Shown one piece after another: positions 2,885 through 62,000 of a stretch of DNA of 64,000 bases; the stretch's first letter is position 1, and every line of letters starts with the position of its first letter. The stretch comes from a virus (Duplodnaviria > Caudoviricetes): positions 1 to 64,000 of IMG/VR virus record IMGVR_UViG_3300028886_000055, one strand, 5' to 3'. The notes beneath the pieces are model-generated. The model had not been told where the DNA came from and searched no databases. It saw only the letters and a program-made list of their open reading frames with translations. The translations under genes and the position numbers were made by a program.

Positions 2885-3077
2885 AATTGATTATACAATG
2901 TCAGGTACTGTTACTGATTGTTGTAGAGCTTGGGTTCATGCTGATTCGGAAGAACAAGCAATTGACTATTTAAAAAGCTGGGATTGGGATCAAATTGAAG
3001 ATACTGAAGTTCTAGATACTCAATATGATGACGATTATGACATTGTTGATATAGAAGATGTAATCGAGGAAAAATGA
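2871..3077 (+). CDS. small acidic hypothetical protein (ADSxExA motif)
   Basis: WVHADSEEQAIDYL. ATGA overlap with the polymerase start. Confidence 0.7.
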   Translation: MKTYKIDYTMSGTVTDCCRAWVHADSEEQAIDYLKSWDWDQIEDTEVLDTQYDDDYDIVDIEDVIEEK

Positions 3078-4960
3078 TAATTAAAGGACTTCCTGTATAT
3101 GTATATGATGTTGAAGTCTTTCCTAATGCATTTACTTGTACTATAAAAAATTCTGAAACTGGAGAATATAAGATCTTTGAAATCTCCGAAAGAAAAAATC
3201 AAGTTTGGGACATAATCGATTTCTTTACAAGTGGTGGTAAAATGATTTGTGGGTACAATAACATCCACTATGATAATCCAATCATCAATTTTTTAATTGA
3301 TAATAAGGAAGCAGCACTATCTACTACTTATAATATAATCTGTCAAGATATATTTACATTAAGTCAAGAAATAATTAATAGCAAAGATCACAATTTTACT
3401 TCTTGGTCTAAATGGAAATATATGAATTATTTTCCAACTCTTGATTTACTTACAATGTTATTTTCTCAAAAACTTCGTTGTGGCTTAAAAGAAATGCAAG
3501 TCACAATGAAGTTTAGAAATGTACAAGAATATGAAGGAGACTTTGATAGATGGTTACCAGTTTCAGAGATTGATAATGTCATAAAATATAATATCAACGA
3601 CGTTGATAGCACTGAGGAGTTACTTAATCGCTGTAAAGAAGAAATAGAATTAAGAGAAGGTATCGAAAAGGAATTTGGAATATCTGTATTAAGTAAAGAC
3701 GGTATGACTATCGGAACAGAAATTCTAAAAACTAAATATCTTGAAAAGACAGGTAAGAAGTGGAAAGATATTAAAGATTTAGGTACTCCTTGTGATATAA
3801 TAGATCTTAACAAAGTAATATTTCCATTTATAAAATATGATACTCCAATTTTGCAAGACTTACTAACTGAAATGAAACAACAGAAAGTAAGTGCTGGTCG
3901 TAAAGGTTATGAAAAACATTTCTTATTAGATAATGTTGAAGTAACTGTAGGAGTTGGAGGCATCCATACTAAAAATGATCCCGAGAAGATTATACCTGAC
4001 CCTGAAACAGAACTTCTTCTTGACAGCGATGTAAATTCACTATACCCGAGTCTTATTATAGCTTATCATTTAGTACCTCCACAGCTTGGTAAAGAATTTG
4101 AAGAAATCTATGGTGAAATTAGAGAAGATAGATTATATGCCAAACATCATCCAGAAATTCCAGGTAATAAAATTAAGAATAGTACATATAAGCTTGCTCT
4201 AAATGGCGCAACTGGTAATTATCAGAATGAACATAGTTGGTTATATAGTCCTTTTACTGTAATGCAGATTAGAATTAATGGTCAATTACTACTCTTACGA
4301 TTAACAGAGATGTTACTTGCTGCTGGTGCTAGACTTAAACAATTAAATACAGATGGAGTACTTTATACAATACCTAAATCTGTAGATTATCAAGCTATTC
4401 TTAAGAAATGGGAGGAAGAAACTAAGCTAACTCTTGAAACTGAAGAGTACGAAGCATTTTATCAGTTTGCAATTAATGATTATCTTGCAGTAGGTAAAGG
4501 GTATAAAGAAACCCACAATCCGAAGTTATTAAAAAAGAAAGGATTGTTTATTGATACTGTAACTTTGGGTAAAGGTATGCAACCAATGATTATACCTAAA
4601 GCATTAAATGCGTATTTTGCAGACGGTATTCCTCCTGAAGAAACGGTAATGAATAGTCAAGACATTAACGATTTTATAACTTATCAGAAAGTAGATAAGA
4701 AGTTTAAAGTGATATATGAAGATAAAGCTATTACTAGAATTAATCGGTTTTATGTTGCTAAAAATGCACCTTATCTATTTAAACAAAAGCCTGGTGGAAA
4801 TCCAGAAAACTTATTAAAAGCATCCGGAGTTAGAATTGTTAATGATTTGACAAAGATTAAAGAATTTCCAAAAGATGTTAATTATAGTTATTATCTTGCA
4901 GAAATTCGTAAAATTATTAGTAAATTTGAAAATAAAGTATTATCTTTATGGGAGGTATAA
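3074..4960 (+). CDS. polB: family B DNA polymerase with 3'-5' exonuclease
   Basis: ExoI YDVEVF, ExoII GYNNIHYD, ExoIII YNINDV, motif A DSDVNSLYPS, motif B YKLALNGATG, motif C QLNTDG. Confidence 0.92.
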   Translation: MIIKGLPVYVYDVEVFPNAFTCTIKNSETGEYKIFEISERKNQVWDIIDFFTSGGKMICGYNNIHYDNPIINFLIDNKEAALSTTYNIICQDIFTLSQEIINSKDHNFTSWSKWKYMNYFPTLDLLTMLFSQKLRCGLKEMQVTMKFRNVQEYEGDFDRWLPVSEIDNVIKYNINDVDSTEELLNRCKEEIELREGIEKEFGISVLSKDGMTIGTEILKTKYLEKTGKKWKDIKDLGTPCDIIDLNKVIFPFIKYDTPILQDLLTEMKQQKVSAGRKGYEKHFLLDNVEVTVGVGGIHTKNDPEKIIPDPETELLLDSDVNSLYPSLIIAYHLVPPQLGKEFEEIYGEIREDRLYAKHHPEIPGNKIKNSTYKLALNGATGNYQNEHSWLYSPFTVMQIRINGQLLLLRLTEMLLAAGARLKQLNTDGVLYTIPKSVDYQAILKKWEEETKLTLETEEYEAFYQFAINDYLAVGKGYKETHNPKLLKKKGLFIDTVTLGKGMQPMIIPKALNAYFADGIPPEETVMNSQDINDFITYQKVDKKFKVIYEDKAITRINRFYVAKNAPYLFKQKPGGNPENLLKASGVRIVNDLTKIKEFPKDVNYSYYLAEIRKIISKFENKVLSLWEV

Positions 4961-58127: not shown

Positions 58128-58979
58128 TTATTCTTTATTTTTAGTCTTTTTATTACTATCTTCTTTAGCTGCTTCGAGTTCAGGATAAGTATCTCTCTTA
58201 ATGAGTTCGAGTATCTTCTTATTTTTAGGATCTTTTAGATAAGCTAGAACTGCATCTTCAGTAATTCCAAGAACTATATCATCTGCATAAACGTAAACCT
58301 TGTTTTTGATATTAATAACGTGCTTTTCTCGGGCTTCAATAATAAGCAAACGGATACCAGTATCTGAACCAGCGTATACATCAATAATTCTTTGAGGATC
58401 ACGTTGTGCAATATCTAGTAAGTATTCAGTAACTTCAGAATCTGGTGCAGCTTTCATATCTTTACCAAGTAAACGTGCATGGAATACACGTCCCATAGCA
58501 CCTTTTTCATCATCAAAGATATAAGCTTCTGCTTTATGACGAAGTTGACGAGTACTAATACGTTTAACACTTTCAAGCTCAGGAGCCTCAACGTATAGTT
58601 CAGCCAAACCATAACGTGCGTTCATCTTACCACGTGCATCTTCACCGTCAATAAGAAGATTACCTTTTGAATCTCGGGCATCTCTAGATAGGGCAATGAT
58701 TGATGAATGTTTAATACATTCCCATTCTGCTTTTTCCCAGGGATCTTCTAGGTTTAATGTTGTTCCATCTTTTACCTCAAATACTTGAGTTTCTGGAATT
58801 AAAACTTCTCCAGAATTTCTGTCTTTATCAGACAAAATCATATCACCCATACTATTTACCCTGCGAACACAGTCTGGGTATCGTCCTGTGATAGGGTCTT
58901 TTGCTACACCAAGAATATATTTATCTATAACCTTGCCATAGACACTTCTCAAAACAATAATATTTTTATCCATAATCAT
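58128..58979 (-). CDS. conserved capsid-module protein downstream of MCP (possible portal-vertex auxiliary protein)
   Basis: Intact 283-aa ORF without TAG. Function inferred from gene order only. Confidence 0.65.
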   Translation of the reverse strand: MIMDKNIIVLRSVYGKVIDKYILGVAKDPITGRYPDCVRRVNSMGDMILSDKDRNSGEVLIPETQVFEVKDGTTLNLEDPWEKAEWECIKHSSIIALSRDARDSKGNLLIDGEDARGKMNARYGLAELYVEAPELESVKRISTRQLRHKAEAYIFDDEKGAMGRVFHARLLGKDMKAAPDSEVTEYLLDIAQRDPQRIIDVYAGSDTGIRLLIIEAREKHVINIKNKVYVYADDIVLGITEDAVLAYLKDPKNKKILELIKRDTYPELEAAKEDSNKKTKNKE

Positions 58980-58996
58980 TAATCCATATTAAAATA

Positions 58997-59027
58997 TTTA
59001 GTAGGGAGAATTAACTCCCTACTAAAT
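58997..59027 (-). terminator. intrinsic terminator after the major capsid gene
   Basis: ATTTAGTAGGGAG-TTAATT-CTCCCTACTAAAT followed by ATTTT on the minus strand. Confidence 0.7.
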
Positions 59028-59083: not shown

Positions 59084-62000
59084 TTAAGCTTCGCGTAGTA
59101 TAAAGCTCCTGTCAAATGTTACCTATAAGGCTCTTTATCCTTATATTCTACAGTTTCTTATTTAAGTTATATCTGTAGTTCAGACTATATCATCACCTCA
59201 TTGAGGTGTCGGGCACTCGTGTTAGGATTATTGTTTGTGCTACTCACCTATTAGTCGTTAGAGGTTTATCGTACTTTTATACACTTCCGATACTTCCTAC
59301 GGGATTGTCCACTTCTGGAGGTTCCCCGATTTCACCCGATTTGCTACTAATGTCACCATTAGAAGCCTCACAGTTTGTTATTTTATACGTTTTGTGATAA
59401 ATCCATCCAGAATTACAATACTTTCTCATATGATTTGGATTGCATTCAATATTTATCAGCTCTATTTTAATACAAAACTTCTGTAAGGATTAAATACAGC
59501 GATTGAAGCATAGCCCCAGTTAACTAACTTAGAACCTGCTACAGTACTTGAAACTACACCACTGCTTAGACCATCAAGACCGCCTACACCAGCAATCTTA
59601 TTATACATAAAGTCACCGCCTTTAAGAGTGAACATTGCAACAGCAGGATTACCACTAGTACTATCGCTAGTCAAGTCAATCATCATTGCAAAACCCTTCT
59701 CGCTACCAAACTCACGAGTAAACGTTCTATCAACGATGAACGAAATTGTATTACCTGCAAAATTGTAAGAATTATAAGTAGCGCCTACATTAAGGTAACC
59801 ATTAGCTTCCTTAGACCATAGGTATGTACCATCTGGTTTATAGTTAGCAAGCCAAGCACCAAGTTTGTTTTGGATATCCATCCAAGCCTTTTCGTTGCAA
59901 ATAAAGGCGTACTTGTTGCCTGTAGGCTTCTCAGCCTTCTGATTCATCATACCAATAGCTGTCTGCATAGCATCAACAGTCAACTCGCTGTAAATATACT
60001 TGCTAGCATAGCGTTCAACCTGAGGAATTAAACCATCGTACATATAAATAGGACGATTAGTGTTAGGATCTACAATAGTCGCTTTACCATTCTTATCAAC
60101 ATTGCTCTTACCGAATAGGAGAGCACGGTTACGAACCTCAAGGAAGTTCTTTAACAAGTTTTTCTCAACTGTATCCATCTTGTAAATGGTCTCACTTAGA
60201 AGCTTGCCGTTACCGTCACCTTTGCCGATAGAGATAAATTGAGTCTCCGTTGCTTTATAAAGTGCAGAATAGGTATCATCACAACGATGTGTACCAATAT
60301 AACCACGATGTTTCTCAATATTACTCTAATATTTTACATACATTAATGTTAGCTTTATGTCACCATAAAGATCAGACTATATCTTAATCTAAATATTTAA
60401 ATACAAATCCTTTACAATGTTCTCGTTTTCCTTGTGCTACTAACTTAGCATTTTTATAACCAGCTTTTACACAGTCAGTCATTGTATTAAATTCTTCAAG
60501 AAGATTTCCATCATCATCAAATCTACCAACTTTACCTCCAACATAAGGTTTGTCAACAGTTCCCATATTTCTATGTTTTAATTTCTTCATAAAGGGAACT
60601 TTTTCGTAAGAAAACTAATAGCCTAAAAATTGATGTCCTTCTTTAATTGCCCTAGGTAAATGACCTCCACCTTTTGCTGAAGGATTTAAAAATCGGCCTG
60701 CAGAATTCACACTATCAAACTCTCTTACAAAATTTCCATCTAAATCATACATATAAACAGCTTTTCTTGGATTAGCACAATCAGGAAGTCTTCCTCCTAA
60801 CGCTAGATTATATACATCCTCTCTTTGTAAAAATTCTTTATTTACTAATTCTTCTTCAAGCTTATATGCATCTTTTTCATTTTCAAATTCTTTTATTGTA
60901 GTTCTAACAAAATTTTTAACTCCGTATTTTTTAACTGCGGATTGAAAAGGAGTTTTAGGATTCATATAAGTTGTAGGTCTATATATTGATACACCATTTC
61001 CGATATAACCGTCAAAATCATCCTGCTCCGTACCATGTACTCCTATATAAATTTTATTATTAATTTTACAGACTGTTTGATATACTATATATTTCATTTT
61101 GTATTTAAATTTTAGATTTATTCCATTTCGGAGTTTATTTCTCCTACGTCTTTCAGACTAGTCGTTGAACCTTCCTTAGTACTTCTCAATGAGTTTGTAT
61201 TATCTAAGGCTTGGCTGCTGATTGTCTTAAAAAAGAGTTCCCAGCAATTAGAAATATTTTTTTAATTTTTCGCTGTCGTAGCATCAGCGGAAGAGAGCAA
61301 TGTAAAAGGACCATAAAGTCTAAGGGTCACCCTCTTCGTGTAATTCGGGCATATAATTTGCTATAAAGCGAGCAGTATCACCAACAGAATATTCTGTGGG
61401 GTCAATACCATTCTTTAAATCAGTAGTAATGTATCGACATTCACAAATCCAATAGTTATCAGCTCTACGGATAGGTCTAGCAATTACTTGGAACTGTTCA
61501 AAGGTATTATCCATACGAAAAGTATCATATTTTTCAAAATAACGCTCTTTGAAAGCAAACATAATAGAAGTGCCATTGCAACCATCACCTTCAGGTGTTG
61601 CAGCAAGTTCTATACGTTTAATGTAATTTGTTTCAACCTCCCATTCAAAAGTCATACCATCAATTGACTGGAACTTATCAGCCTTCTTCAAATCACGATA
61701 GAAGACATTTCTAAGAGCTTCAGTAAGATAACCTGCTGTAAGCTCAGGATACATTCTACTTACAATACCCAATCTTTCTGGGCGAGTACCAAGGAACTTA
61801 TAGAAATCTTCATAAGTTCTTGTTTCCAATTTTGTTACCGTATTAGTTCTTTATCTAACACTTCTAATGTTTTATCATCACATTAGTTCAGACTATATCA
61901 TCATCTTAAAATAAGATGTTTCGCGCTCGTGTCGAAATATTGTTTGTGTTACTCATTCATTAGTCGTTGAACCTTCTTAGTACTTTTACACACTTCCTAA

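Follow-up and report, generated by a model that had tools for sequence, protein, structure and literature searches.

The window analysed here is a 64,000-nt stretch of a crAss-like phage (Duplodnaviria; Caudoviricetes; positions 1 to 64,000 of the IMG/VR record IMGVR_UViG_3300028886_000055), and our subject is the third intron of its major capsid protein (MCP) gene, which begins with a near-copy of the last nine codons of that same gene. We have found that intron 3 is very probably a decayed composite mobile element that targets these nine codons, as judged from comparison with its relatives. Three observations carry this conclusion: exon 4 is the native gene end in sister alleles, the tail copied inside the intron forms the left end of a homing endonuclease gene (HEG) cassette, and the cassette also occurs without a ribozyme at the same site. 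A previous reading of the letters alone (the sequence-only reading) had offered, as the third of its explanations for the duplicate, the scar of an invading element that supplied its own gene 3′ end. This explanation is strongly supported by the above observations, which come from the comparison with intronless and intron-containing relatives named there as a check.

The capsid gene end and its two tails

The relatives of exon 3 were taken from IMG/VR, and about 100 MCP loci, cited below by locus number, were read individually. The MCP gene lies on the minus strand of the window, and its product belongs to the family Crass_capsid (PF23898) according to the Pfam match of an intronless orthologue. 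The features at its 3′ end are as follows.

59486–60325, minus strand: 3′ part of MCP exon 3, an open frame with 98–99% amino acid identity to L003/L002; the 5′ limit is only the start of the open frame
59456–59485, minus strand: tail A, the in-intron copy of the last nine MCP codons and stop, YRSFVLK-TAG-S-TGA
59113–59484, minus strand: whole intron 3 (372 nt), ending ...ATTTG; the exon 3–exon 4 junction is clean and without intron in L003/L016 and L002
59084–59112, minus strand: exon 4 (29 nt), the native MCP tail YRSFILREA and stop, with TAA at 59086–59084
58997–59026, minus strand: terminator-like hairpin 3′ of the MCP gene, read from the sequence and kept in L002 and L003; the next gene starts at 58979

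Exon 3 ends with ...GTA TTT AAT CCT T, the final T being at 59485 on the minus strand. Splicing from 59485 to 59112 closes the gene with TAC AGG AGC TTT ATA CTA CGC GAA GCT TAA (YRSFILREA and stop), and read-through into intron 3 closes it with TAC AGA AGT TTT GTA TTA AAA TAG AGC TGA, where the TGA occupies 59458–59456. The coordinates, the splice junction, the two nine-residue tails and the TGA position given by the sequence-only reading all hold on the minus strand. Tail A and exon 4 are identical at 16 of 29 nt, with 13 matches among the first 17 and 13 in the first 20. When a degenerate 19-mer across both junctions was searched, these two were the only matches in the 64 kb, while shuffled sequences are expected to give 0.01. 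Together with the homologues described below, this search rules out a chance likeness of the two tails.

Reading the TAG in tail A as glutamine, as had been proposed from the letters alone, is justified because in-frame TAGs are frequent in the genes neighbouring MCP, because at 7 of 13 positions they stand opposite a Q of a standard-code relative, and because the genome encodes a tRNA with anticodon CUA. This amber suppressor, labelled Pyl by ARAGORN, is located at 94078–94152 of the 139.7-kb record, outside the window; the 64-kb window itself holds no tRNA gene.

The downstream tail is the native one

In L003/L016 (98% amino acid identity) and L002 (99%) no intron is present at this site, and exon 3 is joined directly to exon-4 sequence. 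In L003, exon 3 is followed by ...TAT AGG AGC TTT ATA CTA CGC GAG GCT TAA and then by the 3′ untranslated region (UTR) of the window with its terminator hairpin. Similarly, the L008 lineage has its empty alleles, L007 and L006, whose downstream sequence is identical. In the first set of alleles taken from a wider scan, intronless and HEG-less tails follow the consensus PYRSFI[LM][RK]E[AVI] plus stop or a near variant of it, and the TAG-Ser ending is confined to intron-linked tails. Exon 4 of the window fits this consensus. Since the intronless sister alleles join exon 3 directly to the exon-4 tail, with the same 3′ UTR in L003, exon 4 is the resident gene end and tail A the newcomer.

The origin of the newcomer can also be traced. 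Tail A of the window shares 25 of 29 nt with tail A of L005, compared with the 16 of 29 shared with its own exon 4, and these comparisons show that it evidently came with the element from an L005-like donor. The displaced end (exon 4 and its UTR, like L003) is nearer to the sister alleles than the inserted copy is, just as described for the gene hybrids of mobile open reading frames (ORFs) discussed below.

The empty allele L002 (~3020–3060) has its Arg-Ser codons beside the insertion site recoded as CGC TCG, and its 3′ UTR is partly different.

A homing endonuclease gene in the P1 loop

The same intron is present at the same site in seven other lineages (L004/L005, L008/L013, L097, L108, L109, L110, and L113). 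In these the layout is exon 3, then tail A with its stop, a spacer, a complete HEG ORF of 249–259 codons, the internal guide sequence (IGS) and the ribozyme core, and then tail B, the native end. All seven HEG-bearing loci have an in-frame tail A plus exon 4 downstream, with the following residues, each tail ending in a stop codon.

L005: tail A YRSFILRQS; tail B YRSFILREA
L008: tail A YRSFILRQS; tail B YRSFILREA
L108: tail A YRSFMIRQS; tail B YRSFILREA
L097: tail A YKSYIARQI; tail B YRSYIAREI
L109: tail A YRSFVIREI; tail B YRSFILREV
L113: tail A YRSFIAQQI; tail B YRSFICQEI
L110: tail A Y-S-A (in-frame 18-nt deletion); tail B YRSFIMREA

That is, in the window and in the seven HEG-bearing intron lineages, an in-phase copy of the gene end stands upstream of the endonuclease ORF. 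The full-length HEGs match NUMOD3 (PF07460, E 5e-10, Pfam) and phrog_314 'homing endonuclease' (E 1e-30). Their N-terminal motif ...YKI...EFYIGVRS... is GIY-YIG-like by eye only; the Pfam GIY-YIG model gives no match to the HEG of the full-length relatives, and a PDB sequence search with the HEG returns no relative.

Two further features of the window belong to this part of the element.

59448–59455, minus strand: spacer remnant and deletion junction; ~671 nt (spacer and HEG codons 1 to ~193) are missing compared with L005
59280–59447, minus strand: 3′ remnant of the HEG ORF, its last ~56–66 codons, overlapping the IGS and P2–P6, with the stop at 59279–59277

The deletion junction was read from pairwise alignment with L005, L008 and L108. 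Positions 59491–59454 of the window correspond to 3832–3869 of L005 (34 of 38 nt identical) and positions 59447–59361 to 4541–4627 (78 of 87), and the 671 nt in between are missing. In a tblastn-type search the remnant matches residues 183–248 of the L005 HEG with 77% identity (E 5e-30). No intact HEG is present in the window, the remnant being without start codon and without N-terminal or catalytic domain, and a tblastn-type search finds no second copy of this HEG family in the 139.7-kb record. The alignments show that the window evidently holds a copy of the intron from which the HEG has been deleted.

Presence or absence of the HEG at this one site is polymorphic in at least four MCP lineages. 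Several host lineages thus comprise alleles with the element and alleles lacking it at a single site, as expected of a homing element, and this polymorphism suggests a putative site-specific cleavage of the empty allele. An intron with neither HEG nor tail was not encountered at this site among the loci read individually.

In all intron forms the last 27–31 codons of the HEG ORF run through the guide sequence into P2–P6. This stretch (4615–4708 in L005, 4523–4616 in L008, and 59280–59373 on the minus strand of the window) is constrained both as RNA and as protein, and the peptide ...GENGE.PE.DNPVGS... of the overlap is conserved across lineages. The spacer between the tail A stop and the HEG is ~85–95 nt in lineages other than L008, where the HEG start codon lies 2 nt past the stop (TAG TCT TAA TT ATG, 3855–3875); translation of the L008 HEG could be coupled to capsid termination on unspliced RNA.

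The same cassette without a ribozyme

Homologous HEGs (62–72% amino acid identity) are also found free-standing, without a ribozyme. In L098–L104 and L114–L117 the MCP ends with YRSFILRCKE and stop, followed by a ~110-nt spacer, a 222-codon HEG past the stop, a terminator and the next gene. The homology between free-standing and intron-borne HEGs ends at ...YKITN, which is the exact start of the guide sequence in the intron forms. Rfam gives no match at L098 and L102, two loci of the kind without ribozyme, even at E ≤ 1; since the same search also misses the obvious intron copy of L097, the absence of a ribozyme from the free-standing loci was judged by reading the sequence.

A second arrangement occurs in L118 and L062. 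The gene there ends with TAC CGT TCA TTT ATC ATG AAA GAG GTA TAA, which is synonymously recoded so that the protein, YRSFIMKEV and stop, is identical to the native one. The HEG end ...AGAATA directly adjoins ACAGAAGCTT(C/T)ATTATGAAAGAAGTGTAA and the UTR, that is, a complete native tail, and this displaced tail with its UTR is identical to the HEG-less alleles L065 and L047. These loci show that a cassette of tail plus HEG evidently occupies the very position of the intron, CC(T/A)T/ACAG, with the native tail displaced behind it.

In addition, the tail of the empty allele L053 (3301–3345) is of the cassette type in its first 12 nt and native afterwards, with Arg-Ser recoded as CGT TCA. Such a chimera is the product expected of recombination between two tail copies. 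Both L053 and L002 are possible footprints of element excision, or possibly endonuclease-resistant alleles.

The ribozyme and its splice site

The ribozyme of the window has the following parts.

59481–59488, minus strand: 5′ strand of P1, CCUU/ACAG; U59485, in a U.G wobble, is the last base before the 5′ splice site (59485/59484)
59366–59373, minus strand: IGS CUGUGAGG, the 3′ strand of P1; its CUGU also pairs with the ACAG of exon 4 as P10
59113–59373, minus strand: ribozyme core P2–P9.x, with omega-G at 59113

Tail A and the HEG fill the P1 loop. From the letters alone this loop had been described as enlarged by the duplicate plus about 100 nt, and in our measurement it extends from 59480 to 59374 (107 nt).

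Positions 59394–59163 match the full-length Rfam model RF00028 (1–253) with a score of 40.7 bits (E 6.6e-8), the scores being 84 bits for intron 1 and 42 bits for intron 2 of the MCP gene. The intron has the expected geometry of group I, namely a P1 paired to the IGS with U.G at the splice site, a P10 with exon 4, and the omega-G G59113. The proline codon before the splice site and the IGS covary in three ways among the eight lineages: CCU/GAGG (CCUU exon) in the window, L005, L008 and L108; CCA/GUGG (CCAU exon) in L097 and L113; and CCG/GCGG (CCGU exon) in L109 and L110. Joint changes are also seen in the first bases of the intron, the first bases of exon 4 and the IGS, which read ACAG/ACAG/CUGU in the window and AUAG/AUAG/CUAU in L005. 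For the core, the RNAalifold consensus of five copies contains 65 pairs; double compensatory changes are found in 22 of these, located in P2, P6a, P7.1, P8, P9 and P9.1. The P7 strands GACUA/UAGUC are invariant, and the copy of the window has every helix of the RNAalifold consensus as well as omega-G. A minimum free energy fold of the whole intron as a single sequence recovers neither P1 nor P7, and such folding is uninformative here.

The assignment of intron 3 to group I is thus made from the RF00028 match together with covariation, and there is strong comparative evidence of long-term selection that has kept the ribozyme foldable and has favoured splicing at 59485/59112.

The core of intron 3 (59176–59288) shares 77% DNA identity with the core of intron 1 (61884–61997), both on the minus strand, and is also like introns of Carjivirus/crAssphage (83–85%) and of Flavobacterium and Clostridium phages (74–76%). 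Therefore, one ribozyme family is widely spread.

Proposed history of the element

Based on the above comparisons, the full element consists of three parts. The first is a copy of the gene 3′ end, tail A with its stop, starting exactly at the insertion site. The second is a short spacer with the GIY-YIG-like HEG (NUMOD3, phrog_314), and the third is a group I ribozyme. Because the guide sequence of the ribozyme is placed at the HEG 3′ end, the P1 loop is filled by tail A and the HEG. Behind the ribozyme comes the native gene end (tail B, exon 4). In the window, a deletion of ~670 nt has taken the spacer and the first ~190 HEG codons, with tail A, the C-terminal remnant of the HEG and an apparently intact ribozyme remaining.

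The pre-mRNA would self-splice to give the native end ...NPYRSFILREA, and translation of unspliced RNA would end nine codons inside the intron, yielding a near-native full-length capsid protein ending in ...NPYRSFVLKQS. Because of this read-through product, a failure of splicing would be buffered and not lethal. The homing endonuclease, now absent here, would once have cut empty alleles near the site and thereby brought in the element from a donor like L005. As direct repeats, the duplicated tails would permit clean loss of the element by recombination, and mosaic tails would be left behind.

Several observations weigh against this account or restrict it. Firstly, in an IQ-TREE phylogeny of 20 HEG proteins the ingroup is a polytomy in which intron-borne and free-standing forms are interleaved without support, and the order of events cannot be polarised because of this. 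The HEG cassette may have entered an intron, a ribozyme may have been added to the cassette, or the ribozyme may have been lost (L118 type). In L109 the ribozyme is flanked by a microhomology, ACAGAA, from which the L118 junction would result. Secondly, the junction between exon 3 and tail A mimics the empty site, yet such an allele would have to avoid self-cleavage. A rule of self-immunity, by which the first base of codon 8 would be G in empty alleles and non-G in HEG-linked tails, is ruled out, as tail A of L109 keeps GAA and the HEG-less allele L086 has TAG. This same L086 (~2780–2820), intronless, ends with ...YVIR-TAG-F and stop (RQF) and is an exception to the tail pattern. Thirdly, tail A of L110 is reduced to Y-S-A and stop; because of this shortened tail, the spare gene end appears dispensable. 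Finally, the 40.7 bits of intron 3 fall below the Rfam gathering score of 50, and Rfam gives no match on L097 even at E ≤ 1, despite the obvious intron copy there; for these reasons the status of the ribozyme rests on covariation.

We have also considered that tail A might be rebuilt from the tail of the recipient at each homing event. This does not fit the window, whose tail A is donor-like, though it may apply to L005, L008 and L097.

Is the spare gene end used?

If intron 3 is a mobile element as proposed, it remains to explain why tail A reads as a capsid end. A plausible explanation, which we rate as less likely than not, is that tail A is a selected fail-safe: purifying selection would keep it, a useful share of the capsid would be made from unspliced RNA, and splicing would be optional. 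Such use is conceivable, if still doubtful, in view of coupled transcription and translation, where ribosomes would cover the 5′ strand of P1 while the P1 loop is 107–780 nt long. Seven of the eight intron lineages retain exactly nine codons plus a stop at the native position. Among tails of the TAG group all changes are synonymous or conservative (TAT/TAC, ATA/ATG/GTA, TTA/ATA, AGA/AAA, AGC/AGT/TCT for Ser, TAA/TGA), and tail A stays while the adjacent spacer varies from 4 to ~95 nt. Its DNA identity between L005 and L008 is 86%, as conserved as the ribozyme, compared with 73% for the HEG. The ribozyme-less L118/L062 and the free-standing L098 form live on the cassette tail alone, and Q at position 8 should be viable because the HEG-less L086, ending RQF, has TAG as the penultimate codon of its sole gene end.

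On the other hand, L110 has shortened its tail A, as mentioned above, and the intron-linked tails leave the near-invariant E-[AVI] ending. The tail of L118, which has no ribozyme, encodes the same protein end as the native tail, and this contrast suggests relaxed constraint where splicing is available. Tail A also tracks the local tail B in L005, L008 and L097 (18–19 of the first 20 nt), for which gene conversion or homing could suffice, and the sample comprises only eight lineages.

Somewhat less likely is that the constraint acts on RNA or DNA only, with tail A serving as a P1 strand, as a loop-closing stem, and as homology for double-strand-break repair or gene conversion, and the protein being irrelevant. 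Indeed, ACAG is a strand of P1. In four copies (window, L005, L108 and L109) AAGUUUU of tail A can pair with AAAACUU, which lies at the HEG 3′ end immediately 5′ to the IGS. L110 has its tail A deleted, and there an 11-nt segment of the spacer, AAAGUCUUUUU, is fully complementary to AAAAAGACUUU in the corresponding position. The chimeric tail of L053 shows that the repeats recombine. However, the closing stem consists mostly of A/U, is weak in L008 and does not occur in L097; it covers codons 2–4 only, and the preserved frame, the conservative changes in codons 5–9 and the stop at the native position are left unexplained. We have therefore not accepted a long P1-extension stem as a general feature: it is suggestive, with 11 bp in L110, yet inconsistent across lineages, and is retained only as part of this alternative.

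It is quite improbable that the intron of the window is dead, with a ribozyme that has ceased to splice, a capsid ending in tail A, and an exon 4 left over as a relic like that of L118. For such a state speaks the deletion of the HEG, by which decay has begun. The Rfam score is sub-threshold as well, and the ribozyme-less relatives prove that such a state is viable. Nevertheless, P1, P10, omega-G, P7 and all RNAalifold helices are intact in this copy, its differences from L005 are compensated in the helices checked by eye (P2, P8, P9 and P9.1), and a shorter P1 loop should aid folding. The sequence-only reading had named an intron unable to splice, with exon 4 as a relic, as the finding that would overturn its view; because P1 and the core covary, the comparative evidence does not point to such an intron.

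Least probable, and in our view unsupported, is the regulated switch between two capsid isoforms, also raised in that reading, in which splicing would be tuned to make QS and EA ends with distinct roles: although both ends are full length and differ at two otherwise almost invariant C-terminal residues, the intronless sisters L002, L003, L007 and L006 manage with one end, tail A varies by lineage (QS, QI, EI, truncated), and the presence of the element follows mobile-element logic and not phylogeny.

Comparison with known systems

Mobile-ORF gene hybrids have been described in mitochondria, in atp6 of Allomyces macrogynus and in atp6, atp9, cox2 and nad3 of Glomus (PMC3630166). In these hybrids an endonuclease ORF lies near the 3′ end of a conserved gene together with an in-phase foreign copy of the C-terminal coding region, and the native C-terminal region is displaced downstream and remains closer to sister taxa (PMC3630166). 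L118 and L062 have exactly this arrangement, and the window has it plus a ribozyme. Unlike the mitochondrial respiratory genes, the gene concerned here is a phage structural gene, and the duplicate is only nine codons long. In addition, most lineages here have a group I ribozyme between the ORF and the native end, which allows splicing to remove the entire cassette and to bring the native end into use.

In mitochondrial introns of Tremella fuciformis the 5′ end duplicates the following exon, some of these introns being spliced and some not, and their gain and loss give an exchange of gene fragments (PMC7315562). The likeness is that a homologue of the downstream exon stands at the very start of the intron, and L053, possibly also L002, carry comparable footprints. 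The Tremella case differs in concerning fungal mitochondrial DNA with longer duplicates and cDNA evidence (PMC7315562), and ours in presenting one HEG with and without ribozyme as a series, with the geometry of P1 and IGS resolved.

Two routes to mobile group I introns have been proposed, namely endonuclease-gene invasion (Loizos et al., T4 sunY/I-TevII) and collaborative homing (Zeng/Bonocora/Shub, cyanophage psbA with F-CphI) (PMC3984707). As in both routes, the intron flanks of the HEG resemble the exon target, and homologous free-standing and intron-borne HEGs act on the same gene end. One illegitimate junction at the IGS (...YKITN, where the L098-type homology ends) would convert one form into the other. 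The arrangement apparently fits both textbook routes to composite introns, with the difference that the resemblance here is a complete in-frame copy of the 3′ exon and not a partial mimic of the target.

Group I introns in MCP and other core genes, together with TAG recoding, are reported for Delta/Zeta crAss-like phages (PMC7886860). The present phage shares with these phages the Crass_capsid MCP, several MCP introns, an amber suppressor tRNA and a genome of at least 140 kb. The passages on introns and inteins in that paper give the intron density, and mention neither an in-intron duplicate of the last exon nor a ribozyme-less cassette. The literature searched has yielded neither a phage intron that holds a copy of the last exon nor a HEG family that occupies a single site in forms with and without a ribozyme. 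To our knowledge, no phage report describes such an arrangement.

Significance

How HEGs and group I ribozymes join is a long-standing question that has been argued mostly from two or three phage cases. Here, homologous HEGs share one nucleotide position within one gene and are met in three states, namely free-standing, embedded in a ribozyme, and deleted. Several host lineages also provide empty alleles, and cassette and ribozyme adjoin each other exactly at the guide sequence. The pathway by which HEG and ribozyme are assembled or disassembled is thus testable with sequences already in public metagenomes. The findings bear on the evolution of mobile introns, and show that gene-end duplication of the kind known from fungal mitochondria also occurs in phages.

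We tentatively propose, as a possibility that goes beyond the main conclusion, that the capsid 3′ end holds a full natural series at one site, in which the ribozyme is an exchangeable module and the spare end makes splicing dispensable. The series would run from the free-standing HEG cassette carrying a gene end, through the cassette inside a ribozyme and the HEG-less intron of the window, to the excision footprints with chimeric tails. If this is true, the ribozyme is a module added to or lost from a mobile-ORF element, and dispensable splicing would permit such transitions in an essential, highly expressed gene.

There are also consequences for annotation. In intron-rich, TAG-recoded crAss-like genomes, a seemingly complete capsid ORF may precede an intron and a second, native last exon, and apparent synonymous recoding at a gene end may be a footprint of element traffic.

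Other introns of the capsid gene

Another group I intron is found in L071 and L074 (~3300–4600), after ...KLINWG and 11 codons upstream of the site studied here. Its read-through product, LTYRKVA and stop, is not a copy of the gene end. In the window, intron 2 (~60355–61264) has a ribozyme that Rfam finds in two halves (61118–61264 and 60355–60387), and holds an intact 237-codon GIY-YIG/NUMOD1 endonuclease ORF (60384–61097, minus strand), which itself needs one TAG read as Q.

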